From: a virus
Lineage: Duplodnaviria; Heunggongvirae; Uroviricota; Caudoviricetes
Direction: 5' to 3' (one strand)
Length of the DNA: 64,000 nt
IMG/VR virus record: IMGVR_UViG_3300041405_000130
Position numbers and translations under genes: made by a program. The notes under the pieces are model-generated. The model had not been told where the DNA came from, did not search any database, and was given only the letters and a program-made list of their open reading frames with translations. Shown in pieces: positions 438 to 52,255 of the stretch (position 1 is the first letter of the stretch; each line of letters begins with the position of its first letter).

Positions 438-524
438 GCGGGGATGGTGGAGCGGTATACGCAGCGGCCTTAAAAGCCGCCGCCCAACTGGGCTCGCTGG
501 GTTCGAATCCCGCTCCCCGCACCA
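438..524 (+). tRNA. tRNA-Leu (anticodon TAA), type II with long variable arm, CCA encoded
   Basis: Acceptor GCGGGGA/TCCCCGC, anticodon arm GCGGC-CTTAAAA-GCCGC, T-loop GGTTCGAATCC, discriminator A, then CCA. Confidence 0.85.
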
Positions 525-530
525 AACATA

Positions 531-560
531 GTGCCTGCCTTTTGGGCAGGCTTTATGCCG
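531..560 (+). terminator. GC hairpin (GCCTGCC-TTTT-GGCAGGC) followed by TTTATGC, after the tRNA; extended -10 TGATATAAT follows at 565-573
   Basis: Read directly from sequence; same stem-TTTATGC arrangement recurs window-wide. Confidence 0.5.
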
Positions 561-564
561 CGTT

Positions 565-573
565 ATGATATAA
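565..573 (+). promoter_or_regulatory. Extended -10 sigma70-like promoter TGaTATAAT upstream of CDS 592
   Basis: TGnTATAAT match; RBS GGAG at 581-584 and ATG at 592 downstream. Confidence 0.45.
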
Positions 574-591
574 TCTTAATGGAGCATAAAT

Positions 592-1317
592 ATGTTCGAA
601 TCACTATTGTCCAGTGGCCACCCAGGCGCTGCAGAAACGGGGGATGTGGTATTCCTATATGACCCTGTTACAAATACGGATCTTGTTGGTGGTCCAGCAG
701 TAACCACACTATCGGGTGGTGCAGTCGCAGATGAAACTATTTTGATCAATGGGCAACCTACTCTTAAATTTCCATCCGTAACAGCAAAACATGTTATTAC
801 ATTTCCTACGGATCTAAATTTAGTCCAAGGTAATTGGACATTGGAGTGGTCGTTTATCAACAACAGTGCGCCAACAGCTTATGCCAACGATTTCGTAATG
901 TACTCTAGAACTGGTGGTGCAGGCGTTGGTCTATATACCCGTTTTGGAGATGGTGGGTTCCTTAACCGTTGGGTATTGTCAGATCCAAGAGGTGCAGCAA
1001 CTCCGAGTCTCACGCAACCTTTACCGTTCACTAAAGCAGCATTGGTTGGGTTAACGACTAACGTAGCCCTGGTCAGTATTGCCGGCGTCATCCGGGTATA
1101 CGTTAACGGCGTAGCTACAATGATGGCCCTGGGTAACGGTAGCACCAACTACAACCAACCTACCTTTATAGCTGAAGGTATGGACAAGATTTATGCATTT
1201 GGTCTAGGTGATGTCAACTCTACTGTTCGAGCAGTACCAGGGAACCGTGGTCGTATTCGACTAAGTAACTTTGCTAGATATAAGAGCAACTACACTCCTG
1301 GCCCATTGACCCTGTAA
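592..1317 (+). CDS. Hypothetical protein embedded in tRNA cluster; concanavalin-A/LamG-like beta-sandwich suspected (RVYVNGV motif)
   Basis: 241-aa ORF, ATG with GGAG RBS 8 nt upstream; weak motif-level resemblance to LamG/lectin folds only. Confidence 0.55.
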   Translation: MFESLLSSGHPGAAETGDVVFLYDPVTNTDLVGGPAVTTLSGGAVADETILINGQPTLKFPSVTAKHVITFPTDLNLVQGNWTLEWSFINNSAPTAYANDFVMYSRTGGAGVGLYTRFGDGGFLNRWVLSDPRGAATPSLTQPLPFTKAALVGLTTNVALVSIAGVIRVYVNGVATMMALGNGSTNYNQPTFIAEGMDKIYAFGLGDVNSTVRAVPGNRGRIRLSNFARYKSNYTPGPLTL

Positions 1318-1345
1318 AAAAATACTACCAGTGTAATAATATACA

Positions 1346-1430
1346 GCGGACATGGCGGAATTGGTAGACGCACTGGATTTAGGTTCCAGCGCCGCAAGGC
1401 GTGAGAGTTCGAGTCTCTCTGTCCGCACCA
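1346..1430 (+). tRNA. tRNA-Leu (anticodon TAG), type II, CCA encoded
   Basis: Acceptor GCGGACA/TGTCCGC, anticodon loop TTTAGGT, long variable arm, T-loop GTTCGAGTC, discriminator A + CCA; close to the enterobacterial tRNA-Leu pattern. Confidence 0.9.
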
Positions 1431-1524
1431 AACGTGCTCTACGGAGCCAACAAGTAAGAGCGTAATCGTTAACGCTTCGTTAACCGAGGTCATGGTGAGA
1501 AAGGAGTGTGGTTCGATTCCACAT

Positions 1525-1556
1525 GATAAGTCTTAAGGACAATAAGCCTTAAGTAA
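1525..1556 (+). other. tRNA-like T-arm fragment (TGTGG-TTCGATT-CCACA) with no pairable acceptor stem; possible tRNA remnant or small RNA
   Basis: Canonical T-loop seen but no 5' acceptor complement in the upstream 100 nt; adjacent perfect hairpins (CTTAAGG...CCTTAAG 1551-1574; ATCGG...CCGAT ~1601-1616). Confidence 0.3.
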
Positions 1557-1631
1557 CTCTGGTGAGACAAATGGTTCGGCCAGCTAGGCCGTTAAATGCA
1601 TCGGCGGAATCCGATCAAGTAGCAAAGTTTT

Positions 1632-1719
1632 GGAAGTATGGCCGAGTGGGTTAAGGCAGCAGTCTTGAAAACTGCCGGGTGTAACAGCCCCTAGAGTTCG
1701 AATCTCTATGCTTCCGCCA
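1632..1719 (+). tRNA. tRNA-Ser (anticodon TGA), type II, CCA encoded
   Basis: Acceptor GGAAGTA/TGCTTCC, anticodon loop CTTGAAA, long variable arm, T-arm TAGAG-TTCGAAT-CTCTA, discriminator G + CCA. Confidence 0.9.
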
Positions 1720-1726
1720 ATTTAGA

Positions 1727-1813
1727 GCTGAGATGGCAGAGTGGACGAATGCGCGGGATTGCAAATCCTGTTTCGAAAGATCATCGGGGGTTCAAATCCC
1801 TCTCTTAGCTCCA
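1727..1813 (+). tRNA. Atypical tRNA with Cys identity (anticodon GCA, discriminator U73) but a ~15-nt variable region and 3-bp D-stem; CCA encoded
   Basis: Acceptor GCTGAGA/TCTTAGC (one G-U pair), anticodon arm CGGGA-TTGCAAA-TCCTG matching the canonical tRNA-Cys anticodon arm, T-arm GGGGG-TTCAAAT-CCCTC; extra TTTCGAAAGATCATC between the anticodon and T arms. Confidence 0.6.
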
Positions 1814-1814
1814 A

Positions 1815-1890
1815 GCCGTTATAGCTCAGTAGGTAGAGCAACTCACTTGTAATGAGAAGGTCGCGGGTTCGATTCCTGCTGACGGCACCA
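1815..1890 (+). tRNA. tRNA-Thr (anticodon TGT), CCA encoded
   Basis: Acceptor GCCGTTA/TGACGGC, D-arm GCTCAGTAGGTAGAGC, anticodon loop CTTGTAA, T-arm GCGGG-TTCGATT-CCTGC, discriminator A + CCA. Confidence 0.9.
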
Positions 1891-1939
1891 GATACGACGA
1901 AAACTCGTTGTTGCAACATTGGCCTTAGAGCCCCTTCGC

Positions 1940-1968
1940 ATTGGCTCGCCTTCGGGTGAGCTTTATGC
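1940..1968 (+). terminator. Hairpin element ATTGGCTCGCC-TTCG-GGTGAGC + TTTATGC after the tRNA cluster
   Basis: UUCG tetraloop hairpin followed by U-rich tract; a member of the repeated intergenic element family. Confidence 0.55.
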
Positions 1969-1994
1969 CCACAATCAATCAAGAGGAATTTACA

Positions 1995-2381
1995 ATGTAT
2001 CCACACAACTATTTCCCTAAACGTAAAACAGCAGCTGAGCGTCTGCGTGACGGCGAAGCATATCGGGCAATGTTAGATAAACAAACAGCAGCCGAAGCAG
2101 AGCGTACTCGGTTCAAAGGACCTGAGCCAATCCAGGAAGCCATAGTGGCTTATGGAGCTGGCTTACAACCATACTTCAATGACATCCGGGGTGATAGCAC
2201 TTGGAGCAATGCACAGATCTGTGGTAAGTTAGAAATAGCCATGCATGAGATCCGTGACGGCTTTACCGAAAGGCAGAAAGCTTATAAGACATATGAGCCT
2301 ACGGTTGTATTTGTAGAAGAAGGCAGACGTGGATATTTCTCGTTGCGTTTAGATGGTTGGGAAATAGGGAAGATTAGCTAA
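1995..2381 (+). CDS. Hypothetical protein (128 aa)
   Basis: ATG at 1995 with AAGAGGA RBS; the ORF-track start at 1941 (MARLRVSF) is a TTG inside the hairpin element and is rejected. Confidence 0.55.
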   Translation: MYPHNYFPKRKTAAERLRDGEAYRAMLDKQTAAEAERTRFKGPEPIQEAIVAYGAGLQPYFNDIRGDSTWSNAQICGKLEIAMHEIRDGFTERQKAYKTYEPTVVFVEEGRRGYFSLRLDGWEIGKIS

Positions 2382-3262
2382 TGGATCTTATCTTTAAGCA
2401 ACATGTTTCACAACTCGATCAATCGGTTAACTTCGAACACCGCTTTGCTGACCACCCTGGGATGCTAGAGGCACGTTACGTACGTCGGGTTGATGACTAC
2501 TTCATTGTTTACTTGTCTTCTCAGACAGGTTGTGAACAGGCTTGCCGGATGTGTTGGCTGACAGCAACAGGGCAAAACAAGACACGCGATGTTACTGTAC
2601 AGGAATACTTGGACCAGGCTAAAGAAGTCCTCAAGTATTACGATGAACGTAACCCAGCTAAGATGGTACACTTTAACTTCATGGCACGCGGTGAACCATT
2701 CGCCAATAAGATCTTTCTAGAGCATGCAGATGAAGTATTGGCTGGACTCGCCACTTTAGCTAAAGAACGTGGACTGGAATACAAGTTCCTGATTTCTACG
2801 ATCTTTCCCGAAGAGGTAGGGTACATTGATCTTACTGAGATCTTTAAAGAACCCGCGTTATATCCAGAACTGTACTACTCTATCTACAGCATGGACAAAA
2901 AGTTCCGTAGACGGTGGTTACCAAAGGCAGCCTCCCCAGAACGAGCATTAGACGAATTAAAGGCATGGCAAGAGCACACGGGTAAAATCCCAAAGATTCA
3001 CTATGCGTTCATTAATAATGAAAACGATAGTCTTGGTGCAGTTAAAGCGATCTGTGACGAAATCGTTGAACTAGAACTCGATGTGAATTGGAACGTAGTT
3101 CGTTATAATCCACCAGAAGGACATTACTCCAAGGAAACAGTAGAAGGGCAAATACACTACCTAGCTGGTTACATTCGTAGTCGGTTACCTAAGGCACGTG
3201 TTAAAGTAATCCCTCGGGTTGGTACGGATGTCCAAGCGAGTTGTGGTACGTTCTTGAAATAA
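2381..3262 (+). CDS. Radical-SAM enzyme of the RlmN/Cfr family (adenosine C2 methyltransferase acting on tRNA A37 / 23S rRNA), N-terminally truncated relative to bacterial RlmN
   Basis: SSQTGCEQACRMC is the C-x3-C-x2-C cluster in the RlmN context (compare SSQVGCALECKFC), TATGQNKTRDVTVQE matches RlmN STAQQGFNRNLRVSE, the MARGEPFAN motif (compare GMGEPL) and a C-terminal ...ASCGTF (compare AACGQL) catalytic Cys. Confidence 0.7.
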   Translation: MDLIFKQHVSQLDQSVNFEHRFADHPGMLEARYVRRVDDYFIVYLSSQTGCEQACRMCWLTATGQNKTRDVTVQEYLDQAKEVLKYYDERNPAKMVHFNFMARGEPFANKIFLEHADEVLAGLATLAKERGLEYKFLISTIFPEEVGYIDLTEIFKEPALYPELYYSIYSMDKKFRRRWLPKAASPERALDELKAWQEHTGKIPKIHYAFINNENDSLGAVKAICDEIVELELDVNWNVVRYNPPEGHYSKETVEGQIHYLAGYIRSRLPKARVKVIPRVGTDVQASCGTFLK

Positions 3263-3573
3263 AATACTGGTGCTGTAATAGTATACGACCAAGGCATGTG
3301 TTGTAAGCGGTTTACATGCTGAACGGTGGAAGATACAAATAACAACGACGGCTGTCAACCGTCAAACCGAATGTCTTATTTACGCATGTGACAGTGTGTC
3401 TATAAGAAGGTCGTGTAATAATGTTGTGGATATCCGATAGGGCCAGCCATTGGGTGCTGGACGTAGATATCTTCAATCTCTTATTAGGCGGCGCCGGATA
3501 ACACCAAGATCTCTGATTAATTGGGGATAGAGCAGGCCGGCCTTGGAACTATCTGGTTTAACTTAAGTATTGA

Positions 3574-3600
3574 GTCCTACCTGCGGGTAGGGCTTTATGC
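3574..3600 (+). terminator. Hairpin element CCTACC-TGCG-GGTAGG + CTTTATGC
   Basis: Same element family, plus orientation, in the 420-nt non-coding gap. Confidence 0.4.
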
Positions 3601-3699
3601 TGTGTAAAAGAATACTCGCGGTAATACAATATACAGGACTATACGTTCAAGCACTTAGAAAGTTACGAGCATCGTAATTAACGCTTGAAAGGTATAAAC

Positions 3700-4011
3700 A
3701 TGTTTTACAACGATTGGTCCGAAAGTGGTATTGATGGTTTGATGTCTGACTTCTCCATTCACGAAAGTGATTTGGCTGGTGTAACAATCATTCACGCTGA
3801 CTATACTTACGAAGATTACAGTGGGTCCGCCTACGTGCTCTACGTTAAGGAAGGAAAGTATTATGAAGTCCATGGTTCTCACTGCTCCTGTATGGGACTG
3901 GAAGGACAATGGGAGCCTGAAGAATGCGCCCTGTACGAGTTGGCAGAAATGCTAACACGCCGAGGTGATTCCGTCATCGGTAAAGACCTTCAATCTTACT
4001 TGGATAGATGA
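3700..4011 (+). CDS. Hypothetical protein (103 aa)
   Basis: ATG at 3700 after an AAAGG RBS (ORF-track start 3685 is TTG); acidic small protein. Confidence 0.5.
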   Translation: MFYNDWSESGIDGLMSDFSIHESDLAGVTIIHADYTYEDYSGSAYVLYVKEGKYYEVHGSHCSCMGLEGQWEPEECALYELAEMLTRRGDSVIGKDLQSYLDR

Positions 4012-4029
4012 ACTGTAGTTCTGTAGCAA

Positions 4030-4058
4030 AGGAGTTCCCTTCGGGGAGCTCTTATGCC
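4030..4058 (+). terminator. Hairpin element GAGTTCCC-TTCG-GGGAGCTC + TTATGC
   Basis: UUCG tetraloop hairpin, plus orientation. Confidence 0.5.
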
Positions 4059-4129
4059 GTTGTGTAGAAATACTCGATTGGACAATGTAGTGAACCAATA
4101 ACCGTTAATCCCGCAATGAGGTTAGGACC

Positions 4130-4483
4130 ATGCGATTCAATTGGGAACCCGGTCGACAAGGAACAGGTTACGAGAAATTACAACTCTTAAACCGTTGGAA
4201 GTTCTTTAGTCGATTTAAATGGGATCTTTACTTACTGCGTTACCCGGTAGGCTCAGGTATCCCTAGACATCGTGATCCATTACCTAACCACAGGCATTAC
4301 CGGTTAAACATCTATCTGCGCAACGCAAGTGCAGGTGGTGTCCCTGAACATGATGATGTAATCATAAGCAACCGCTTCTTTACATTGTTCAGACCAGATT
4401 TGTCAACACACAGCGTTAGCCCCGTAACTAAAGGTACGCGCTATGTCTTAAGCTTTGGCTTATCAAAACAAATTAACGTCTAA
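4130..4483 (+). CDS. Small 2-oxoglutarate/Fe(II)-dependent oxygenase-like protein
   Basis: H-x-D (RHRDP) ... H (THSVSP) ... R-x-S (RYVLS) motif arrangement typical of the 2OG-Fe(II) dioxygenase double-stranded beta-helix; GAGG RBS. Confidence 0.5.
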   Translation: MRFNWEPGRQGTGYEKLQLLNRWKFFSRFKWDLYLLRYPVGSGIPRHRDPLPNHRHYRLNIYLRNASAGGVPEHDDVIISNRFFTLFRPDLSTHSVSPVTKGTRYVLSFGLSKQINV

Positions 4484-4511
4484 ACTCTCTTTCCATCCGC
4501 GTGAGGTTTAT

Positions 4512-5777
4512 ATGAAACAAGAAACAAAGACATTTGAAATCATTGGTGGAGAACCCGAACCGGGAACTAAACCGATCAAAGGCTGGACTGTCGGCGTGCC
4601 GGTAGAACCAGAAGCTGTTAAACAACTGAAGAACATTGCTGCACTTCCGTTCATCTATTCCCACGTCGCAGTAATGCCTGACGTTCATTTGGGTAAAGGT
4701 GCAACGGTTGGTTCTGTGATCGCTACTAAAGGCGCTATCGTGCCAGCAGCAGTCGGTGTAGACATTGGGTGCGGAATGGCAGCCCAACGCCTGCGCTTCT
4801 CCTCAGACGCGCTTCCAGAGTCTCTGGGGCATCTCCGTGCCGCTATTGAATCGTGCGTACCTCATGGACGTACGGATAATGGCGGTAAGAACGATCGTGG
4901 TGCTTTTGGTACCGTGTCTATCTTCAATCATCAAGTGAAAGCTGTACGCGAAGAAGCTGAAAAGCTCCGCCGGCAACTGGACTCGATTGTTGAACGGCAT
5001 CCAAAACTGAAGCGTGCTTCTGAGAAAGCCTGGAACCACGTAGGTACACTTGGTACAGGTAACCACTTCATCGAACTGTGTCTAGATGAAACAGATCGTG
5101 TGTGGATTATGCTGCACTCTGGTTCTCGTGGTATTGGTAACGCTATCGGTTCGTACTTCATCGAGAAAGCCAAAGAAGAGATGGGTCGGTTCTTCATCCA
5201 TCTGCCGGACAAAGATCTGTCATATCTTCCAGAAGGTTCCCGTTACTACAACGATTACGTTGAAGCGGTATCCTGGGCGCAGCGCTTTGCTGCATTGAAC
5301 CGTTCGGTAATGATGCACGCTGCACTGGGCGCTATTCACCGTACGTTGGGTCTGCCGATTGATTCTGATATGGAAGCAATCAACTGCCACCACAACTACG
5401 TGTCTGAAGAACGACACATGGGACAAAACGTTATCGTAACTCGTAAGGGTGCGGTAGCTGCTCATGAAGGTACTCTGGGGATCATCCCTGGATCGATGGG
5501 TGCTAAGTCTTTCATCGTTCGCGGTAAAGGTAATCGTGATTCCTTCTGCTCGTGTTCGCATGGAGCTGGTCGTGTCATGTCGCGTACCCAAGCTGCCAAG
5601 ACCTTTACACTGGAAGATCACATCCGTGACACAGCTGGTGTTGAATGCCGTAAGGATATCGAGGTAATCGATGAAACACCTAAGGCATACAAAAACATCG
5701 AAGACGTGATGTCTGCTCAGGAAGAACTGGTAGATATCGTTCATACACTGAAACAATTCCTGTGCGTGAAAGGATGA
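4512..5777 (+). CDS. rtcB: RtcB RNA 3'-phosphate/2',3'-cyclic phosphate to 5'-OH ligase (tRNA/RNA repair)
   Basis: Hallmark RtcB motifs GTLGTGNHFIE, CHHNY and SHGAGR; 421 aa from ATG 4512 (GAGG RBS); the ORF-track start at 4455 is TTG. Confidence 0.9.
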   Translation: MKQETKTFEIIGGEPEPGTKPIKGWTVGVPVEPEAVKQLKNIAALPFIYSHVAVMPDVHLGKGATVGSVIATKGAIVPAAVGVDIGCGMAAQRLRFSSDALPESLGHLRAAIESCVPHGRTDNGGKNDRGAFGTVSIFNHQVKAVREEAEKLRRQLDSIVERHPKLKRASEKAWNHVGTLGTGNHFIELCLDETDRVWIMLHSGSRGIGNAIGSYFIEKAKEEMGRFFIHLPDKDLSYLPEGSRYYNDYVEAVSWAQRFAALNRSVMMHAALGAIHRTLGLPIDSDMEAINCHHNYVSEERHMGQNVIVTRKGAVAAHEGTLGIIPGSMGAKSFIVRGKGNRDSFCSCSHGAGRVMSRTQAAKTFTLEDHIRDTAGVECRKDIEVIDETPKAYKNIEDVMSAQEELVDIVHTLKQFLCVKG

Positions 5778-25167: not shown

Positions 25168-25392
25168 TTAAAGTACCTTGTTATTTTCTTTATCAAACAG
25201 CACGTTAACGCTGAAGAAGCTAGATACGGTGAACCGGTGTGGCCAACCGAGTGGTTTTGGATCAGGTGTGACGGTGTCATCAATGACAAAGCCCACCACG
25301 TTATTTTCAACCCTTACCAGACGATCCGGCATGTAAACTTTAGGGCCGAACTTCGGGCACGTATCATACACACCGTCAGCTAGATTGTGCAT
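25168..25392 (-). CDS. Hypothetical protein (74 aa)
   Basis: ORF. Confidence 0.4.
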
Positions 25393-26624
25393 TGAGGTAT
25401 ACCTTTCTTGTAAGCTTTCAAAGCCATCAGTCTTGCTAACCTGAGTGCTTTACCTAGGTCTGGACCTTTGTACCCTTTTTCAATCAGTGGCTGTGTTTCC
25501 ACAAGGCGCACTGTGTTAGCTGCACAACGCATGTACTCAGCTTGTGGGTATGCACGATGTTCCAAACCATCTCGACCCCTGGCATCCATCTCACATGCGC
25601 GGATGAAATCCTCGAATCGTTGTGGCCTGCGATATATGTCAAAGCTTTGCAACAACTCCAACAATTTCTTTGGCGTTAGTTCCATAGCCCGATGACAATG
25701 GGTGTGGTATTGACACACCAGCGATGCTAATTGCTGGCAATCCTTCGGCACTTTAAATCGAGCATTGACATCATTAACTAATGGCACCCCCGACTTTTCA
25801 TGCTTCAGATGTTGTGGCCATTCCTCTTTAGGAGTTACACCTTTACCCAGATCATGCAACAAACATGCCCAACGAATCGGTAACGATTGCTGAAACAATG
25901 ATGCCTGTCGCAATACACTCAAGATATGTAAGCCAGTACAGATCTCTGGATGATGTGCCGCAGGCTGTGGTACACCAAACAACGCATCAACCTCTGGTAG
26001 CAATACCTTTAGCGCACCACAATCCCGTAACACTTCGATAAAGACATGTGGGTCATCTTCCATTAACGCACGAGATATTTCTTTCCAACTGCGTTCAGCG
26101 GCTAATGTTTTCAGTTCACCAGATTCACTGAGTTGACGCATCAACTCTAATGTTTCAGGTGCCACTGTAAACCCCAAGCATGCATAACGGGCTGCAAAGC
26201 GAGCTACCCGTAATACACGCAATGGATCTTCAGCAAAAGCCGGAGATACATGACGCAGCACTCGATCTTGCAAATCACGCAGACCATTGTAAGGATCAAT
26301 CAGGTTTAGTTGATCATCCTCAGCAATAGCATTAATCGTCAAATCACGACGACTAAGATCTTCTTCCAACGTTACATCAGAACTGGCATGGAAAGTAAAG
26401 CCACCATAACCAGTTCCACTTTTACGTTCGGTACGAGCCAGCGCGTATTCTTCACTCGTCTCCGGATGTAAGAACACAGGGAAATCAGTACCGACTGGTT
26501 TGTAGCCTTGCTCTAACATTTCCTCAGTAGTAGAACCAACCACTACCCAGTCTACGTCAGTTACAGGGAAACCCAGCAATCGGTCACGTACGGCGCCGCC
26601 GACTTTATAAACTGTTGGTTTCAT
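25380..26624 (-). CDS. cca: tRNA nucleotidyltransferase (CCA-adding enzyme) with C-terminal HD domain
   Basis: Strong motif match to bacterial class-II CCA enzymes throughout the N-terminal head: [63 protein letters not shown], then the HDLGKG HD motif. Confidence 0.9.
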
Positions 26625-31543: not shown

Positions 31544-32407
31544 TTACTTGTTGAAGATACGGTTCGAAAGACCAGCGCTGCCCATAGCCTCGTAAGGTAC
31601 GAAAACAGCAGCTTTGTTTTCCGCCATTTGACCTTGAACGTCCAGAGCTTTGTAAGCCAGCAACATTGGGCTCAGACCATCAGCAGTGATGGCGTTAGAG
31701 TCACGCAGGGTCTTGGCACGGGTCAGCTCGATATCACGGTCCAGTTGCGCAAGAGCCAGAGCGTTGGTACGCTTGGTGGTCTCGATCGCTTGCTGGTTGG
31801 TTTCAGTTTCGATAGCCAGACGACGTTCCGATTGCTTCTCGATAGCAACGGTGATAACATCAGGGTATTTCAAGTTACCCAGAGTAACGTTGGAAACTTC
31901 CAGAGGAGAGTTAGCCATTGCCTTCACCAGACGCTCACTGAGATCTTTGGTGATGTTATCGAAGTTAGCACCAACGTCTTCGGTCTTATACTTGCCCACA
32001 ACCGAACGGGATACCGATTGCACAACGTCTAGGCCATACACACCGTAGACTTGCTGCAGAGTAACGCGTTTGTCTTTCACTTGGATGTCGTTGAACATCT
32101 GGTTCAGGACTTTCTCGTTACCGCCGATGCGAGTACGGAAGCGAACATCGAAGGTCAGGTCGAGCTTGTCGTCCATCTTCACGGTGATGGTTTCAGCAAC
32201 GGTACGGGTACCAGTTTCCAGCAGGACCAGTTCATCACGGCCCCACAGGGTTTCTTTACCCGGTTCCAGGATTTCTTTGTTGTAGCCAGTAGTGGTCAGA
32301 ACCTTACCTTTGAAAGCAGGAGGAATGACTTCGAACGAGCAACCTTGCAGCGCAACGACAGCGATCATGGCGAGTGCAGCGGATTTGATTACAGACAACA
32401 GTTTCAT
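31544..32407 (-). CDS. SPFH/band-7 (prohibitin-like) domain lipoprotein
   Basis: Lipobox LQG-C signal peptide; the central region has an SPFH-like alternation of beta and long coiled-coil helix (QSERRLAIETETNQQAIETTKR...). Confidence 0.5.
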   Translation of the reverse strand: MKLLSVIKSAALAMIAVVALQGCSFEVIPPAFKGKVLTTTGYNKEILEPGKETLWGRDELVLLETGTRTVAETITVKMDDKLDLTFDVRFRTRIGGNEKVLNQMFNDIQVKDKRVTLQQVYGVYGLDVVQSVSRSVVGKYKTEDVGANFDNITKDLSERLVKAMANSPLEVSNVTLGNLKYPDVITVAIEKQSERRLAIETETNQQAIETTKRTNALALAQLDRDIELTRAKTLRDSNAITADGLSPMLLAYKALDVQGQMAENKAAVFVPYEAMGSAGLSNRIFNK

Positions 32408-44272: not shown

Positions 44273-45643
44273 TTAATCGTCAGCTTTCTTGAGCAAGTAC
44301 GAGTTCGAGATAGCTTTCCACGACATTACGCGTTTCAGCGACTTGAACACGATACCTTCACGATAGGTACCTTTCTTCTGGTTGAAAGCACGTTGACCTT
44401 CAGCCATGGCCAGGACATCTTTAACAGTCCACTCTTTCGGAATTACGAAACGTTCGTGCATCACAGGAACGTAGGTCAGACCCAGTTCTTCTACGATCTT
44501 ACGAGCTTCTTCCGGCAGAACTTCTTCGTTACCGTTGCGGTACACGTTGAAGATGTGGTATTCGTGTTCTTCTACACCTTCGAAGCCAGACTGGATGTCA
44601 GGACCGATCTGCTCACCTTGCAGGGTGATGAACTCACCGGTACGAGCATGGTAGGCTTTCAGCTTACCCAGGATGTCGTACTTAGCGATAGTGCGGGTGT
44701 AGTTGTTATCACCACCTTCGGTCTTCGCTTTCCACTCTGGAACAGTGATACCATTCCAACGGATGCGCAGTTTGAAGTTACCTTCGTCATCTTTGGTTTT
44801 CTTCCAAGAAACGATCTTACGGTTACGTGCCAGGAAAGTACCAACCCAGTAACGCAGCTGTTCGGTAAAGGTCCATTCTTCGCCACCGATACCCAGCTCG
44901 TAATTACGCGAGCAGACACCAGTACGAACACCACCATCATTGATGCAGAAAGCAGTCATCGATTGACCGTCGAGTTTGTAAGTTACTTCAAACTCTTCTT
45001 CTTCCGATTGAGCTACCGAGAAAGCAACAGTTTTGTTCTGTACGCGGTCTTGATCGGACTTAATCAGTTGAGCAGGCCATGGCATCAGAGTGCCACCGAT
45101 GTTACCGAGGATCTTACGGATCAAACGGCTGTACCAACCCGAGTTACCCACAGCAGCAGGCCCATCGCGTTCGGTTTGTGGCTTTGGCTCGTACTTCAGG
45201 ATACCGAGTTCCAGAGTCAGGTTAGTATCAACCGGAGCGTCTTTGAACTTATCGGGAACCGGAACCAGCAAACCTTGCGACAGTTCTTTACGCAGTTTGA
45301 TAGTGGTCAGGCGGTGGTAGTTCTCGCCGTTAACACGACGGTTAGACGAACGACGTTCTTCCAGGAAACCAAACAGTGCTACGTTCGACAGCGGTAGCAG
45401 GGAATCGATCTCACAGTAAACAGCGCGTTCGCCTTTCTTGTACTCGCCAATCTTGACGCACAGTTGCCAACCACCAACGACAGCCAGTTCCAATGCATCG
45501 GCATTAGGGTGCTTAACAACGTCATCGATAACAACAATACGTGCAAGCTTGCGATCTTTTTCTACAACACCAAAACCTTCTTTGATCGGCTTGTCAACCA
45601 GAACAGTTTCAGCTACAACTGGAGTAACCACTTCTTGGGTCAT
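44273..45643 (-). CDS. ATP-dependent RNA ligase (KxDG nucleotidyltransferase) fused to an N-terminal tRNA-binding OB-fold (Myf/Trbp111-like) domain
   Basis: N-terminus VVKHPNADALELAVVGGW matches the tRNA-binding-domain signature (KHPDADKL...V.VG); KLDGQS is the ligase motif I; start set at ATG 45643 (GAGGAAGA RBS) rather than GTG 45754. Confidence 0.6.
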   Translation of the reverse strand: MTQEVVTPVVAETVLVDKPIKEGFGVVEKDRKLARIVVIDDVVKHPNADALELAVVGGWQLCVKIGEYKKGERAVYCEIDSLLPLSNVALFGFLEERRSSNRRVNGENYHRLTTIKLRKELSQGLLVPVPDKFKDAPVDTNLTLELGILKYEPKPQTERDGPAAVGNSGWYSRLIRKILGNIGGTLMPWPAQLIKSDQDRVQNKTVAFSVAQSEEEEFEVTYKLDGQSMTAFCINDGGVRTGVCSRNYELGIGGEEWTFTEQLRYWVGTFLARNRKIVSWKKTKDDEGNFKLRIRWNGITVPEWKAKTEGGDNNYTRTIAKYDILGKLKAYHARTGEFITLQGEQIGPDIQSGFEGVEEHEYHIFNVYRNGNEEVLPEEARKIVEELGLTYVPVMHERFVIPKEWTVKDVLAMAEGQRAFNQKKGTYREGIVFKSLKRVMSWKAISNSYLLKKADD

Positions 45644-45707
45644 TGCATCTTCCTCGTGGGATATTGAAACAGATCTCTCTGTATTCAATAATCCACACGA
45701 GTACTTT

Positions 45708-46091
45708 TTAGCAGATAACCGTAAGGGCAGTGGTCTTGTTGTTACTAACGCCACTACTAACCCGGAAGGTCCACGCGTTGTAACCTACACGCCAGTATGG
45801 ATAACGCAGCACGATTACTTGCATGTCACCGGTATACTGCGTTTGCAACGTCTTAACGATTTGATCAACCGAGTACGTCTTTTCTTTCAGTTCCGACAGT
45901 TCAGCAATGGTCGTCTTCTTAACCGACCACGTCCGGGTAACCATGGTTAGCAACCAGATGATCCAAACTACGAAGGCAATGAAACCATCGATCAGGCTGT
46001 TTTGAATCCACCAATACCAACCGGTATCAGCGGGCTTGCGTTTCTTTACTTCACCTGTAATCAAAGAAAACAGGTAAATCAGCTTTTCCAT
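45708..46091 (-). CDS. Membrane protein (127 aa)
   Basis: Two TM helices. Confidence 0.5.
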   Translation of the reverse strand: MEKLIYLFSLITGEVKKRKPADTGWYWWIQNSLIDGFIAFVVWIIWLLTMVTRTWSVKKTTIAELSELKEKTYSVDQIVKTLQTQYTGDMQVIVLRYPYWRVGYNAWTFRVSSGVSNNKTTALTVIC

Positions 46092-46097
46092 TTTGTC

Positions 46098-46529
46098 TCA
46101 CTTCTTCTTTTTAGGTTTACCCGATACTTCATGGGTATAGTCTGTATGGTGTTCATTTGGAATGAAATCCAGTTGTAGGATTTCAATGACTCGACCTTGG
46201 GCATCTTGCACCATACGTGCACCCAGAGTTACGCCACCACTTTCACGGGCGTGTTTCAGCGCGTCACGAAGTGGACCATGGTAATGAGCCACGAAAGTAT
46301 AGGTGCCGTCTGTAACGTTGTGTGTAGGCTCTTTTAGTACAGAGCATACGCTCGTTGGGTTTATCTGTCCCAACCGCCACAGACGACGTTTGGCGTCCTT
46401 GTACGGTGTAAGGTTAGGAACACCAGCTTCTGTTTGCATGCCAATGGCTTTGTATTTCTTTACATAAGCTTCCAGTGCTTCTAGATAACCGTCTGGTTTG
46501 CCTTTTAGATCAATCGTTGTCCGGAACAT
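46098..46529 (-). CDS. Hypothetical protein (143 aa), His-rich, Lys tail
   Basis: ORF. Confidence 0.5.
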   Translation of the reverse strand: MFRTTIDLKGKPDGYLEALEAYVKKYKAIGMQTEAGVPNLTPYKDAKRRLWRLGQINPTSVCSVLKEPTHNVTDGTYTFVAHYHGPLRDALKHARESGGVTLGARMVQDAQGRVIEILQLDFIPNEHHTDYTHEVSGKPKKKK

Positions 46530-47052
46530 CTTGTTCTGCCTCTTTTACGTTCAGCCAATATGCATAAATGGCTTTGTCTTTGGGACGCTGGATAAGGAAG
46601 TCACAGAAATGCAAAGCATATTCACGTGGACTGGTGTCGGCACCAATTGCTTCCTGAATAGCTGTGCTAAGTTCATTAGCGACTTGCTTCACTATTACAG
46701 CATCATCTGTTTTGGTTAGCTCACCCTTCAGTGCCATGTCCAATAGGACTTCCAGCATTGTATGGGTAGTAGATTCGAATGACAGGTTGTGTCGAATCAA
46801 AACTGCATTTAATGAGCATTTGCCACTGAGGAAATCTTCGATCTCATTCAATGGGTGTGGATTGTTGGTAAAGCGTGGAACGTCCTCGCCATCCAGGTAG
46901 TCATGGATCTGAGCTACCGTGCGATCAGCATACTGCGAAACAGTTTTGGTTGTGGTAGGACTATAACGGTTGGTACGACCCGTTAATTTTTCATCCTTCT
47001 TCAGATTCATCAAAGCACAACGTTCTTCGAGTTGCAGTTCGCGCTGGAACAT
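46510..47052 (-). CDS. Hypothetical protein (180 aa)
   Basis: ORF. Confidence 0.5.
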   Translation of the reverse strand: MFQRELQLEERCALMNLKKDEKLTGRTNRYSPTTTKTVSQYADRTVAQIHDYLDGEDVPRFTNNPHPLNEIEDFLSGKCSLNAVLIRHNLSFESTTHTMLEVLLDMALKGELTKTDDAVIVKQVANELSTAIQEAIGADTSPREYALHFCDFLIQRPKDKAIYAYWLNVKEAEQDVPDND

Positions 47053-47054
47053 GA

Positions 47055-47330
47055 TTAGTCTTCCTGTTTAATGGGATAGTCGATTGCTTGAAAACGGACG
47101 TTCGTAATTGGACGTTCGTGATCAACCATGTGGAGATGGGTTACGTCTTTGATTGTGTTCAGCCAGTTAGCTACTACACCAGCCTCAGCACCAAACACTT
47201 GAGCTTCTTCAACATCCTGCACTTTGGTAAAGCTGTAATGCTTACCATCGTGAGAAACACCAGCTACCAAACCGACACTGTTCTTATCCAGTATCGGATA
47301 CACGGTTACAGCAATAACTTTCTTAGTCAT
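47055..47330 (-). CDS. Hypothetical protein (91 aa)
   Basis: ORF, GGAG RBS. Confidence 0.45.
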   Translation of the reverse strand: MTKKVIAVTVYPILDKNSVGLVAGVSHDGKHYSFTKVQDVEEAQVFGAEAGVVANWLNTIKDVTHLHMVDHERPITNVRFQAIDYPIKQED

Positions 47331-47339
47331 GACAACTCC

Positions 47340-47366
47340 GAATAAAAGCCTCCCCGAAGGGAGGCC
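47340..47366 (-). terminator. Hairpin GCCTCCC-UUCG-GGGAGGC + CUUUUAUU after the thyA-like gene
   Basis: Perfect stem; there is no promoter before the next gene, so read-through or attenuation is implied. Confidence 0.6.
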
Positions 47367-47374
47367 TTATGTTG

Positions 47375-48799
47375 TTAAACAGCTACAGGGGCTTCAATGG
47401 CTGGTTGTGGATTGTAACCAATCACTTCCAGGTCATGATAAGTCATATCCAGGATCGATGTGCCGACTGGCAAGTTGATCTTCAGACGTGGTAGCTCCTG
47501 ATCAGGAATGCGCTGTTGTTGCAGATCCACTTGGTCCAAATGGTTCAAGTAAATGTGGGCATCGCCGACCATGTGGATCAGTTCTTCACCGTACATATTA
47601 AACTGGTGTGCCAGCTTGTGCGTCAGCGAGGAATAGAATGTCAGGTTATATGGCGCACCCAAGAACACGTCATTGGAACGCATGTAGAACAGACAAGTCA
47701 AGCCACGACGTGGAATATTCAATGCATCACAGTACGCGTGCAGCTTGACGTCATCGCGCTGATATGCGTTATCAATTACGGTACAGAACAAATCCAGTGG
47801 ATAAGGTGCATGTGTCGTATAAATGTCAGCATGACTACGTTTGGCGATGTCTTGATAAAGTTCCTTTTGTTCCCGTGCAAACCGCTCAACATAAATGTCA
47901 TAGCGTTCACATGGGTCTAATTCACGAGTCCAGAACTGAATGAACGAATGGCAAGGTGGCAAAGCTTGCTCATCTACAAACAATGGATTCCATGGACACA
48001 AAATCAAACGACGAGAATCAGGGTTGTGTTCCAGATTCTTCAACAGCTCAGCGAATTGATCGAAGTCACGATGGTAGATGTCTTTGGTAGAGACGTCATC
48101 CGATACAGGGGTCATTGAACCCATGTACTCGAACCCACGCGCATGCATCTTCATGTGTTCTTCGTTACTCAGTGGATCAACCATCCGAGTGTCAGGGATG
48201 CTACGGAACATTGCACCGTAAACTTTACCGAGTTCGCCATCAACAACTTCTTGATCGGAGATACCCAGAGCAGTATAGAACTCAAACCACAGAGGATCTT
48301 CTTTATCTTCCCACCGTTTTACGTTCACATTGTTGTCCGATTTATCTAGGACCATGTGTCGCTCGTTAGGAAACACGTAGATCTTGTAATCATCTCCGAC
48401 ATGGAGTAGAGTCCAATGCTCAATTTCTTCCTCAGTTGACCCAGCACTGAAGACACCTGGCTCTTCCCAACCGAAATGGTTACGCTTGTAGGCACGACGC
48501 ATTTCTTTCAGCAACCGCGGGCGGTAAGTACCTGTACCTTCCAGTACCCATTCATCCCAGATGTTGCAGTTGTTCTCTTTTAAGAACTTCAGACGGGTAT
48601 CACCGGAGATCATCCAGTCTTCTTCGACTTGACCGGTTTTGATGTGAATCTTTTTGGTTGATACTGCAGCCAAACGGTTGCCGCGAATATCATAGCGGCG
48701 TACTACACCTGGTGCCGAGATAGTGCCGGTGTTAGTACGATCTTCTTTCTTTACACCGCGCTCTAGAACTTCGCGCTGCATTGACAAATACTGGTCCAT
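47375..48799 (-). CDS. thyA: Thymidylate synthase (ThyA) homologue with three large insertions (474 aa versus the canonical ~264); could be a dUMP-modifying variant
   Basis: ThyA motifs conserved: QYLSMQREVLERGVKKEDRTNTGT, IWDEW, GKVYGAMFR, PDSRRLILCPWNP, PPCHSFIQFW (catalytic Cys), RSNDVFLGAPYN (Asn indicates dUMP specificity), GDAHIY..H, and a C-terminal ...AIEAPVAV; true ATG at 48799. Confidence 0.8.
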   Translation of the reverse strand: MDQYLSMQREVLERGVKKEDRTNTGTISAPGVVRRYDIRGNRLAAVSTKKIHIKTGQVEEDWMISGDTRLKFLKENNCNIWDEWVLEGTGTYRPRLLKEMRRAYKRNHFGWEEPGVFSAGSTEEEIEHWTLLHVGDDYKIYVFPNERHMVLDKSDNNVNVKRWEDKEDPLWFEFYTALGISDQEVVDGELGKVYGAMFRSIPDTRMVDPLSNEEHMKMHARGFEYMGSMTPVSDDVSTKDIYHRDFDQFAELLKNLEHNPDSRRLILCPWNPLFVDEQALPPCHSFIQFWTRELDPCERYDIYVERFAREQKELYQDIAKRSHADIYTTHAPYPLDLFCTVIDNAYQRDDVKLHAYCDALNIPRRGLTCLFYMRSNDVFLGAPYNLTFYSSLTHKLAHQFNMYGEELIHMVGDAHIYLNHLDQVDLQQQRIPDQELPRLKINLPVGTSILDMTYHDLEVIGYNPQPAIEAPVAV

Positions 48800-48821
48800 C
48801 AAATTCTCCTGTGGTTATACA

Positions 48822-49409
48822 TCATTGCCACAATGCGTTATTTTTCCACGTAGGGTGGCTTGGGGCGAATACCACACAAAGATCTTTGTTATGATGCGCT
48901 ACCAAAGCTGGCCAACTGGTTTGCTTTCTGAATCCGATCTGTAAGGATGTCATCGTGTGATCATGAATGTCGAGGATGTTGGACAGTTGGATACCAGCAG
49001 CCAGATTAGGGACACGGTACAAACCTTTATCCAGTTCTTGATACAACACTTCTTCAACGTGTTCCATTGTGAAAGTCAACCGAACTTTCGCAAATTCCAT
49101 CAGGCCCAAATGTTGCACCGTATATTGACCGGTGGTCTCATTGAACTGAATGGTTGTCATGAGTTCATCGAACGGCAGACGGTTCCGATAGATGTTGATA
49201 TGTTTACGATCACCGTAGCTGGTGAACTGAATATGAAACCCACCTTTAGGCATCGCCCCTTCGGCAGTCAGCAATGTGCCATCAACAAAGGCGATGTCCT
49301 TTCCGACGAGATCTGAATGGGCACCACTTTTATGGGTATCGAAGTTGAGAACCACATCAAATTCAACACGTTCCGCTTTTGGTTTTTCACAACCTGCGCA
49401 GCAACTCAT
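48822..49409 (-). CDS. Hypothetical protein (195 aa), Cys-rich N-terminus
   Basis: ORF, GAGGTG RBS. Confidence 0.5.
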   Translation of the reverse strand: MSCCAGCEKPKAERVEFDVVLNFDTHKSGAHSDLVGKDIAFVDGTLLTAEGAMPKGGFHIQFTSYGDRKHINIYRNRLPFDELMTTIQFNETTGQYTVQHLGLMEFAKVRLTFTMEHVEEVLYQELDKGLYRVPNLAAGIQLSNILDIHDHTMTSLQIGFRKQTSWPALVAHHNKDLCVVFAPSHPTWKNNALWQ

Positions 49410-49426
49410 TTAACACCTCGTAATGA

Positions 49427-49462
49427 CAAAAAAGAAAATAGGATGGGGACCCGAAGGTCCCC
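49427..49462 (-). terminator. Terminator GGGGACC-UUCG-GGTCCCC + U-rich
   Basis: After nadV. Confidence 0.65.
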
Positions 49463-49468
49463 GTCCGA

Positions 49469-51292: not shown

Positions 51293-51310
51293 GTTGAATC
51301 AATTCCTTGT

Positions 51311-52255
51311 TTACAGGTGCTTGAATGCGATCAGGTTTTCAGGATTGTTTTCACGCTGCGGTAAGTCAACGTGATAAGTGTTCATGGTGTAGACTTTGTC
51401 AAAGACACTGGTCAACACTTCAACACCAGCGGAGAAAATACCGTGGGTAACGTACAACGACAACGAACCCAGATCATAGTCCTTCAGAACTTTTGCCAGT
51501 TCGGTAAAGGTACGTCCACCGTCACAGATATCGTCAACGATCAACAGATCTTCACCAGCCAGATCAGTCAGTTCCATTACTTCATCGCCAGCAACAAAGC
51601 TGTCAACGGTAGTGCGCAGGATCTTACCATCACGAGTGTTACGAACTTTATTGGCATACACGATGCCTTTAAAGCCAAACTCTTTTGCCAGTGATTCTAC
51701 CTTCTTACGTGCACCAGCATCAGGTGCAACCAGAATGGTATTCTTGGGATTGATGCGATCATCATTACCCCAATCCAACATGTGTTTACGGAACAGATCA
51801 TTCAGCGAGAACACACGTGCATTGTTCAATACCGAACCAATAACGTCAGAGTGCGGATCAGTCAAGATCACACGTTCTACGTCAAGGCTATTGATGACAT
51901 GAGCAAATGCTTTAGCCGAATTCGCTTCACCTGGGTTACACACACGGTCTTGTCGAGCGTATGGCATGTAGCCGATGTCAAGCGTGATTGATGGGTTGGC
52001 CACCAATGCGTTTTCACGAATAGCGTTTACAGCCATGATCAAAGACCACGCTGCCGCCGCATCTGGTAGAGCTGCAACGATCCGATAGCTTTCACCTTTG
52101 AACCACTGGCCCTTCTGGCTCATGCCATCTTCACGAGGAATGGATACGTTTACTTCACCAGCCGGAAACATCCGACCATCACGAATTTCGGTAGGGAACG
52201 AGCGAGTCACTCCCACACCTTCATGCGTTACGATCAGTTTCAGATTCTGATTCAT
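51311..52255 (-). CDS. prs: Ribose-phosphate pyrophosphokinase (PRPP synthetase)
   Basis: PRPP-binding loop LLIVDDICDGGRT and a bipartite PRTase fold; co-operonic with nadV. Confidence 0.75.
   Translation of the reverse strand: MNQNLKLIVTHEGVGVTRSFPTEIRDGRMFPAGEVNVSIPREDGMSQKGQWFKGESYRIVAALPDAAAAWSLIMAVNAIRENALVANPSITLDIGYMPYARQDRVCNPGEANSAKAFAHVINSLDVERVILTDPHSDVIGSVLNNARVFSLNDLFRKHMLDWGNDDRINPKNTILVAPDAGARKKVESLAKEFGFKGIVYANKVRNTRDGKILRTTVDSFVAGDEVMELTDLAGEDLLIVDDICDGGRTFTELAKVLKDYDLGSLSLYVTHGIFSAGVEVLTSVFDKVYTMNTYHVDLPQRENNPENLIAFKHL

Follow-up and report, generated by a model that had tools for sequence, protein, structure and literature searches.

A tRNA island with predicted RNA-repair enzymes and a candidate RtcB-linked structured RNA in a fragment of a jumbo-phage genome

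Overall organization of the locus

We analysed a 64,000-nucleotide stretch of DNA (hereafter, the window) from IMG/VR virus record IMGVR_UViG_3300041405_000130, assigned to the Caudoviricetes, in which positions 438–5777 of the plus strand carry five tRNA genes, a radical S-adenosylmethionine (rSAM) enzyme, a candidate structured RNA of ∼310 nt, a small 2-oxoglutarate (2OG)-Fe(II) oxygenase and the RNA ligase RtcB. An earlier note on this DNA, made from the sequence alone, had placed the tRNAs, the rSAM gene, the 2OG gene and RtcB at these positions on one strand, with a CCA-adding enzyme and an ATP-dependent RNA ligase elsewhere in the window, and ARAGORN and Pfam searches locate all of them in the same places. 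The window has a GC content of 46.7%.

The nearest record is Pseudomonas phage D6 (OQ363659; 307 kb), which is 78% identical at the nucleotide level from the tRNAs through RtcB and has the same gene order. The rSAM protein is 66–74% identical to those of RVTF4, Psa21, D6, 201phi2-1, Viktualia and Phabio. D6, Psa21 (MK552327) and RVTF4 (PQ015378) share with the window the succession tRNA-Leu, tRNA-Ser, (tRNA-Cys), tRNA-Thr, small open reading frame (ORF), rSAM, structured RNA, small protein, (2OG), RtcB and the same downstream genes; brackets mark genes that are not present throughout. They differ in that cca is missing from the syntenic site of D6 and Psa21 and the 2OG gene from Psa21, and in that the deposited records call the rSAM gene RlmN or 'Fe-S-cluster redox domain' and have no annotation in the RNA region. 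Further comparison loci from relatives are referred to by L-numbers (L001, L003, L006, L220 and so on). From this shared gene order and sequence, we assign the window to a 201phi2-1/Psa21/D6-like jumbo phage of the Pseudomonas type; the region is where its tRNA island ends, at the 3′ side, and an accessory block lies downstream. The island is larger than the five genes seen, which constitute its 3′ part, as the window begins inside it; in relatives up to 13 tRNAs lie within 8 kb upstream, and the island is broken up by ORFs, including an HNH gene. Phages of this lineage are treated as nucleus-forming (PMC10299810).

tRNA genes

According to ARAGORN, the 64-kb window has exactly five tRNA genes, which share the plus strand, and Rfam scores them at 44–72 bits against a gathering cutoff of 29; the earlier note had proposed such a scan, which returned the five genes that it had listed, with the same coordinates. 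They are the class II tRNA-Leu(UAA) (438–524; 44.3 bits against the Rfam tRNA model), tRNA-Leu(UAG) (1346–1430) and tRNA-Ser(UGA) (1632–1719), followed by tRNA-Cys(GCA) (1727–1813; 53.8 bits) and tRNA-Thr(UGU) (1815–1890; 71.5 bits). The 3′ CCA is encoded in all five.

The tRNA-Cys has a class-II-like shape: its variable region of 14–15 nt contains a 3-bp stem, the D stem has 3 bp and the D arm resembles those of tRNA-Leu and tRNA-Ser. The 4–5 nt variable loop of a class I tRNA is absent, and the long variable region is kept in six phages; the gene is also found in D6, L006, L014, L220 and RVTF4, and a pair of the variable stem alternates between U.U, U–A and A–U. The main identity elements of cysteinyl-tRNA synthetase are U73 and the anticodon GCA (PMC5389517); the tRNA at 1727–1813 has both and is a predicted cysteine acceptor. 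Together with the same two identity elements, a long variable arm also occurs in selC*, a tRNA-Cys known from anaerobic bacteria (Mukai et al., PMC5389517), from which the phage tRNA differs in its ordinary 7/5 acceptor/T arrangement, a variable stem of only 3 bp and the lack of a SelB or selenocysteine context.

Four of the five anticodons (UAA, UAG, UGA and UGU) have U34 and read A- and G-ending codons. GC3, the GC content at third codon positions, is 46.6% in the window, and TTA, ACA and TGT are regularly used (7.9, 11.1 and 5.9 per thousand codons, respectively). These features, together with the broad set of up to 13 tRNAs in the islands of relatives, as opposed to one nuclease-targeted species, speak for a reading in which the locus serves codon supply and housekeeping only: the tRNAs would cover A/U-ending codons that are poorly decoded by a GC-rich Pseudomonas, and RtcB, Cca and the ATP-dependent ligase would maintain the translation apparatus over the long jumbo-phage cycle, with no part in dealing with host defences. 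RNA ligases, however, have no known role in codon supply, and in relatives RtcB adjoins NAD-salvage genes that have been read as counter-defence (PMC7824862). We consider the exclusion of a defence role somewhat unlikely; codon supply and defence are in any case mutually compatible.

Predicted RNA-repair enzymes

The 3′-phosphate/5′-OH RNA ligase RtcB (4512–5777, plus strand) matches PF01139 from profile position 1 to 426 of 426 with an E value of 2.9e-126 and a score of 422.6 bits (cutoff 27). Relatives and a ribosome-binding site favour ATG 4512 over TTG 4455 as its start. In an alignment with Pyrococcus horikoshii RtcB, residues D95, C98, H203, H234, H329 and H404 (motifs GVDIGCG, GNHF, LHSGSRG, HHN and SHGAGR) are all identical; they comprise the Asp/Cys/His ligands of the two metals and the GMP-accepting (guanylylated) histidine, and the active site is intact. 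The identification of RtcB in the earlier note is thereby upheld.

Cca, a predicted multifunctional CCA-adding and repair enzyme, is encoded on the minus strand at 25380–26624 and has a class II nucleotidyltransferase (PolyA_pol) domain, an RNA-binding domain and an HD domain (E = 2.6e-09). It scores 648.5 bits against NF008137, the equivalog model of the Escherichia coli-type multifunctional enzyme (cutoff 451), and the head motifs GGxVRD, DxD, RRD and EDxxR (EDPLRVLR) are retained in the alignment, in agreement with the earlier assignment. The gene is a lineage-specific accessory: at the syntenic site D6 has two small ORFs instead and Psa21 is ∼1.5 kb shorter. Its best matches in the phage collection are just 57–58% identical and come from records that look bacterial. 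A recent capture from a GC-rich host was considered and is not supported, as the GC content (46.3%) and GC3 (37.8%) of the gene match those of the phage.

The ATP-dependent RNA ligase (44273–45754, minus strand) is of the Rnl5 (DraRnl/NgrRnl) type, with matches to PF21189 (1.7e-22) and PF09414 (2.3e-16), and its best structurally solved relative is the nick-sealing ligase of Naegleria, NgrRnl (E = 4.6e-37). It shares with NgrRnl and DraRnl an N-terminal OB domain, a nucleotidyltransferase domain and motifs I, III, IV and V (KLDG, LQGE, EGIVFK and WKAIS), and differs from them in an insertion of ∼87 residues between motifs I and III, a possibly over-long N-terminus and a score against TIGR02306 that is under the cutoff (123 versus 151 bits). 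The earlier note had described this protein as a ligase with a tRNA-binding domain. The ligase stands, with its motifs present, but the tRNA-binding domain does not: the N-terminal domain is the Rnl5 OB fold of PF21189, and at E ≤ 0.01 only PF21189 and PF09414 were matched and no tRNA_bind (Trbp111/EMAP-type) family.

The window thus encodes tRNAs, a 3′-P/5′-OH ligase, a 3′-OH/5′-P ligase and a CCA enzyme, as had been proposed, with catalytic residues present and the activities predicted. Neither of the two outcomes that the earlier note had named as fatal to its proposal, a failure of the profile searches or a loss of active-site residues, was observed for RtcB, Cca or the Rnl5-type ligase.

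Near the ligase and ThyA, within 44273–52255 of the minus strand, lies a nicotinamide adenine dinucleotide (NAD)-salvage pair consisting of an NAMPT-like phosphoribosyltransferase (49469–51292) and a ribose-phosphate diphosphokinase (PRS; 51311–52255), both identified with Pfam/NCBIfam models. Several enzymes of this segment are swollen by insertions: ThyA (47375–48802) has 475 residues compared with ∼264–320, NAMPT 607 compared with ∼465 and the ligase 493 compared with 340, and no intein family matched the insertions in these three proteins. The minus strand also encodes a BCS1-like AAA ATPase (52620–53996), an SspB-like adaptor (54703–55449) and an SPFH/Band_7 protein (31544–32407).

A structured RNA candidate beside RtcB

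The gap of 423 bp between the rSAM stop codon and the next ORF holds a candidate gene for a structured non-coding RNA of ∼310 nt (3287–3600, plus strand), supported by covariation and by promoter-like and terminator-like signals at its ends. No plus-strand ORF longer than 28 residues is present in this region. The predicted architecture consists of hairpins P1–P3, a kissing loop (UGUCA:UGACA), a long-range helix P4, a 3′ domain and a terminator-like hairpin. Statistics were obtained from a seven-sequence alignment (A3), as addition of the divergent L220 copy by MAFFT degraded the alignment. The RNAalifold consensus has compensatory changes in 39 of 57 predicted pairs. In the edited structure 92% of sequence-pair cells are paired, compared with 39–47% when the partners are slid by 1–3 columns, 39 of 59 pairs change on both sides, compared with 10–15 in the slid controls, and none of 500 shuffles reaches the observed values, a comparison that is biased somewhat in favour of the structure because it was derived from the same alignment on which it was scored. 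The folding z-score is −2.8.

The invariant hairpin loops CUGUCAA and GUGACA are complementary, and in L220 the register shifts to GUCAA:UUGAC with five pairs kept. By eye, the P1 loop CGGUUU pairs with a downstream AAACCG, with a C–G to U–A switch in D6 and L220. The 5-bp stem with the loop CUGUCAA could be taken for a mimic of an anticodon arm, but is better explained as one half of the kissing loop with GUGACA. In searches against Rfam 15, neither 12 kb at E ≤ 1 nor 386 nt at E ≤ 10 produced a relevant match; transfer-messenger RNA (tmRNA), Y RNA, group I and II introns, T-box, RNase P, GOLLD and ROOL were rejected as identities of the RNA, since Rfam returned nothing at these permissive thresholds and ARAGORN found no tmRNA.

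All nine distinct loci with RtcB next to the tRNA island have the RNA (the window, D6, L006, L008, L009, L014(-16), Psa21, L220 and, weakly, RVTF4), and at least ten close rSAM loci without RtcB there (L010-13, L017, L018 and L221-224) lack it. In L220 an extra gene splits the rSAM gene from the RNA, which stays beside RtcB and the small protein orf103 with its invariant HGSHCSC motif. Pattern scans of viral, metagenome (among the matches listed) and genome contigs returned only the known RNA loci and chance matches. We take the RNA and the HGSHCSC protein to form a unit with RtcB in this subclade. Since every copy comes from the same subclade, the association of RNA and RtcB may trace to a single insertion.

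Salmonella likewise encodes a structured non-coding RNA beside rtcB, and Y-RNA-like RNAs accompany RtcB in some rsr-yrlBA-rtcBA operons. By analogy, RtcB of the window might act mainly with or on the 310-nt RNA, either ligating or circularizing it or using it as a cofactor, sensor or decoy, with generic tRNA repair being secondary. Such a role would account for the distribution of the RNA among RtcB-bearing and RtcB-free loci and for its staying with orf103 and RtcB in L220, and the structure itself is strongly supported. It is weakened by the possibility of one insertion event, by the RNA having promoter-like and terminator-like signals of its own and by the RtcB genes of RAY, RP12, PA1C, Viktualia and pEa_SNUABM_37, near which no such RNA was found. 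Moreover, the RNA resembles neither YrlA nor any Rfam model. The window shares with the RtcB operons of E. coli and Salmonella (rtcBA with RtcR; rsr-yrlBA-rtcBA) an RtcB with the same catalytic residues, but lacks RtcA, RtcR and Ro60. On balance, we regard a principal role of RtcB with or on this RNA as distinctly improbable.

A Cfr/RlmN-like radical-SAM family without the second cysteine

The rSAM enzyme (2381–3262, plus strand) belongs to the phage family phrog_27142 and has a Cfr/RlmN-like core. It scores 67.8 bits against TIGR00048 (cutoff 290) and 38–46 bits against Cfr models (cutoffs 468–550); a profile of the phage family matches Cfr at E = 1e-14 and RlmN at ∼1e-5. The family has ∼2,000 homologues at E ≤ 0.001, mostly on jumbo-phage contigs, with a few bacterial copies. 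Its members have ∼295 residues, and alignments begin at about residue 89 of RlmN and residue 72 of Cfr, the N-terminal accessory/RNA-binding domain of ∼90 residues being absent. Among 18 diverse members only four cysteines are invariant: C51, C55 and C58 of the CxxxCxxC motif and C288, the equivalent of RlmN C355. The position of RlmN C118 and Cfr C105 is occupied by an invariant tyrosine, Tyr44 (YLSSQ.gC). In RlmN, C118 resolves the covalent enzyme–RNA intermediate, which is trapped in C118 mutants.

The phage enzyme therefore resembles RlmN and Cfr (PDB entries 3RFA, 5HR6 and 9P0P) in its homologous core, the CxxxCxxC motif and the C-terminal motif of the methyl-carrying cysteine (D.xA[AS]CG), but differs from them in lacking both the N-terminal domain and the second cysteine and in scoring far under the equivalog cutoffs. 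The gene identified in the earlier note as an RlmN-family methyltransferase is real and its core is homologous, yet it represents a separate family, and judged from its sequence the enzyme is an uncharacterized relative of Cfr and RlmN. We found no literature on phage RlmN-like enzymes. The description of the rSAM and 2OG proteins as tRNA-modification enzymes is not established either: the former lacks two defining features of RlmN and the latter resembles prolyl hydroxylases (see below). That all members of the rSAM family examined are without the cysteine which the canonical enzymes need for release of the RNA substrate poses a clear mechanistic question.

A small ORF of 128 residues (from ATG 1995; 1995–2381, plus strand) ends in a stop codon that overlaps the rSAM start by 1 nt (TAATG), and its homologues lie upstream of the rSAM gene in D6, L008, L009, L014 and L220. 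Distant rSAM relatives also have a short ORF overlapping the rSAM start, which suggests a translationally coupled partner of the enzyme. In a Planctomycetota genome (L003, 7158–9883), an rSAM homologue of 55% identity lies between an AbiEii toxin gene and a reverse-transcriptase and Band_7 pair, a context that looks like a defence island.

2OG oxygenase and small proteins

The 2OG-Fe(II) oxygenase (4130–4483, plus strand) is a minimal, prolyl-4-hydroxylase-like protein of 117 residues. Its Pfam score is under the cutoff (22.3 versus 27), but H47, D49 and H94 of the HxD...H triad and R104, the 2OG-binding arginine, are invariant among 18 homologues, and the predicted model is an all-β double-stranded β-helix with a pLDDT of 91, so that the assignment in the earlier note is borne out. 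The best PDB folds, all weak, are prolyl 4-hydroxylases (5c5t, vCPH; 5hv0, BaP4H; PHD2) and generic cupins. An AlkB-type RNA/DNA demethylase is not supported, as the fold search returned these proteins and not AlkB, TET or JBP. The modelled fold makes a protein hydroxylase the more likely function. The 2OG gene is directly upstream of RtcB in the window, D6, L014-16, L220, RVTF4 and Viktualia (L232, 5602–7221); it is missing from L006, L008, L009 and Psa21 and occurs in Phabio and Lu11 without a nearby RtcB.

Between the structured RNA and the 2OG gene, orf103 (from ATG 3700; 3700–4011, plus strand; phrog_8792) encodes a small conserved protein of 103 residues with the invariant motif HGSHCSC.GLE.QW.PEE and has 259 homologues in phages and prophages. 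An archease-like RtcB cofactor was considered and rejected: the model has a pLDDT of 92, and no PDB fold matches it with an E value better than 0.39. An ORF of 241 residues (592–1317, plus strand), located between tRNA genes, matches an internal part of phrog_3545 and no Pfam or NCBIfam model; its homologues are found in the tRNA islands of relatives.

Promoter-like and terminator-like signals and other non-coding elements

Two signals recur at the RNA genes. A promoter-like motif, AATACT-N6-RTAATANTATAC, is matched three times in the window where 0.18 matches are expected; the three lie in the island and are conserved in relatives. One (1321–1344) stops 1 nt short of the mature 5′ end of tRNA-Leu(UAG), a second (3263–3286) directly follows the rSAM stop codon and precedes the 310-nt RNA gene, and the third (3611–3634), which has three mismatches to the pattern and is strongly conserved in the alignment, precedes the block of orf103, the 2OG gene and RtcB; all are on the plus strand. 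The second signal is a terminator-like hairpin followed by GCTTTATGC, which occurs six times in the window against 0.37 expected. Three of its copies follow RNA genes of the island on the plus strand: one after tRNA-Leu(UAA) (533–558), one at the end of the tRNA block after tRNA-Thr (1944–1968) and one, with GCUUUAUGC, at the end of the 310-nt RNA gene (3572–3600). The remaining copies are on the minus strand at 11567, 12709 and 28940. The two recurring signals are likely to represent a promoter and a terminator specific to the phage. The window shows no enrichment of sigma-70-type promoters (13 found versus 15 expected).

A conserved non-coding spacer of 196 nt follows tRNA-Leu(UAG) (1431–1626, plus strand) and contains the T-arm-like GGTTCGATTCC. 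It is 91% identical to the stretch right after tRNA-Leu(UAG) in D6, which exceeds the conservation of the flanking genes. Neither ARAGORN nor Rfam calls a tRNA in the spacer, which may contain a small RNA, either a tRNA that has degenerated or one of another kind.

Just ahead of tRNA-Leu(UAA), at 89–437, is a second conserved non-coding element, which runs off the start of the window. Its counterparts are at L001 3362–4067, L009 5542–6261 and L014 4530–5286; the identity is 86–89% to L008 and L009 and 72–83% to L006, Psa21 and Phabio, and the invariant blocks are TACTTGCCCTCCATC, AGTAGATAG.CC, GGATGAAAAG and CCAGCGGCGATCTAC. In the corresponding inter-tRNA spacer of ∼700 nt, the longest stop-free stretch is at most 81 residues in D6 and L014 and 106 residues in L009. 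The element has no Rfam or tmRNA match and weak covariation support.

Co-occurrence and inheritance of the genes

The earlier note had called the co-occurrence of RtcB, an Rnl ligase, Cca and an RlmN-like enzyme in one phage region unusual. This does not hold: the same layout of tRNAs, rSAM and RtcB is found in D6, Psa21 and RVTF4, ligase pairs are widespread and the underlying logic has already been published. In tblastn searches, 706 phage records have homologues of RtcB, 441 of Cca and 337 of the Rnl5-type ligase. RtcB and the Rnl5-type ligase occur together in D6, Psa21, RVTF4, the PA1C/PS119XW group, RP12/RP31, Viktualia and pEa_SNUABM_37/48, and are adjacent in the last of these. A survey of jumbo phages interprets tRNAs, RtcB and Rnl ligases, CCA-adding enzymes and NAD salvage as a counter to host attack on translation, and notes that the ligases may be combined in any way (Iyer et al., 2021, PMC7824862); the combination of tRNA supply and repair is also described elsewhere (PMC9503650). 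The systems of Iyer, Anantharaman, Krishnan, Burroughs and Aravind (2021; PMC7824862) resemble the present one in combining tRNAs, RtcB and/or ATP-dependent ligases, a CCA enzyme and NAD salvage. The window differs from them in having no detected polynucleotide kinase, 2H phosphoesterase or RlaP, and the survey makes no mention of radical-SAM or RlmN/Cfr-like enzymes or of an RtcB-linked structured RNA.

The genes do not behave as one module. The order in RP12 and PA1C is RtcB, ribose-phosphate diphosphokinase, NAMPT, one further gene and Rnl, and in Viktualia RtcB is close to PRS and NAMPT, and the ligase is encoded at another place. The window has PRS, NAMPT and Rnl together at 44273–52255 on the minus strand, with RtcB instead beside the tRNA island. 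Because RtcB adjoins PRS and NAMPT in RP12, PA1C and Viktualia but the tRNA island here, it appears to have moved between two addresses in the lineage. Dozens of metagenomic jumbo phages, together with 201phi2-1, Phabio, CcrColossus and jumbo phages of Brevundimonas, carry an rSAM gene that has no RtcB within 8 kb and in many cases no tRNAs either; the 2OG gene has a patchy distribution, and Cca is gone from the syntenic site in D6 and Psa21. As judged from these distributions, the accessory genes of the toolkit were acquired independently of one another and form a mosaic, not one co-inherited operon, and the variable placement of RtcB (beside NAD-salvage/Rnl genes or beside the tRNA island) and presence of Cca argue against reading co-occurrence in a single genome as one system.

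A stronger version of this view attributes the clustering to an accessory-gene hot spot at the tRNA island and denies the rSAM enzyme, the 2OG oxygenase and the small ORFs any connection with tRNA or RNA repair. The many rSAM genes that lie apart from RtcB and tRNAs, the bacterial copy between AbiEii and a reverse transcriptase, the patchy occurrence of the 2OG gene and its resemblance to protein hydroxylases, and the HNH and other ORFs that interrupt the island in relatives all accord with it. Against it, the rSAM core is homologous to RNA methyltransferases, and the tRNA-island clade and Viktualia, which differ in genomic context, both have the 2OG gene directly upstream of RtcB; this is the sole recurrent adjacency and hints at a real link. 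We hold such a hot spot to be a serious possibility, if somewhat short of an even chance.

Proposed function and biological implications

Taken as a whole, the locus is probably the 3′ end of a tRNA island joined to a mosaic accessory block, which together provide tRNA supply plus RNA repair. Promoter-like motifs specific to the phage, placed right against the RNA genes, would start transcription, and the hairpin and GCUUUAUGC elements would end it. The tRNAs would top up decoding for a phage of 47% GC in a GC-rich host and replace tRNAs lost to host nucleases. RtcB, if it is cytoplasmic like its RAY homologue gp048 (PMC10299810), would reseal breaks with 2′,3′-cyclic-P or 3′-P and 5′-OH ends in tRNA or rRNA, Cca would rebuild or heal 3′ ends and the Rnl5-type ligase would seal 3′-OH/5′-P nicks in duplex RNA regions. 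Evasion of anticodon nucleases as the purpose of this kit, as the earlier note had it, is a plausible inference.

Several points weigh against this interpretation. Among the ∼60 window ORFs scanned there is no polynucleotide kinase/phosphatase, RtcA, archease, 2H or Nudix partner; the repair pathway of the T4 type (Pnkp plus Rnl) is thus not represented by any healing kinase/phosphatase family in this set, and sealing of nuclease-type ends by the ATP-dependent ligase is therefore not provided for within the window. The comparison with host codon usage refers to Pseudomonas codon tables in general, the assignment to the nucleus-forming chimalliviruses is drawn from kinship with the relatives, and the promoter and terminator roles are suggested by position and conservation. 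The lack of enrichment of sigma-70-type promoters fits the use of a phage RNA polymerase but proves nothing.

A bolder proposal concerns the 310-nt RNA and, separately, the rSAM family. The RNA would belong to a new class of structured phage RNAs and cooperate with RtcB, and perhaps also with the HGSHCSC protein and the 2OG oxygenase, in a phage RNA-repair pathway, where it might be a sensor, a scaffold or a decoy or might itself be ligated. The rSAM family without Cys118 may perform an RNA chemistry unlike the methylation by RlmN and Cfr, for example by forming a single-turnover covalent adduct or by resolving the intermediate with its tyrosine. We consider this proposal unlikely.

Phage tRNAs combined with RNA ligases and a CCA enzyme have been described before, and the window adds one more jumbo phage that fits this headline idea. 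What is worth keeping from this locus is the RtcB-linked RNA with its covariation support, the Cfr/RlmN-like family without Cys118 and the class-II-shaped tRNA-Cys. The RNA gene tied to RtcB, which is unannotated in the published genomes of D6, Psa21 and RVTF4, may offer a handle on how RNA repair is organized or regulated in these phages.

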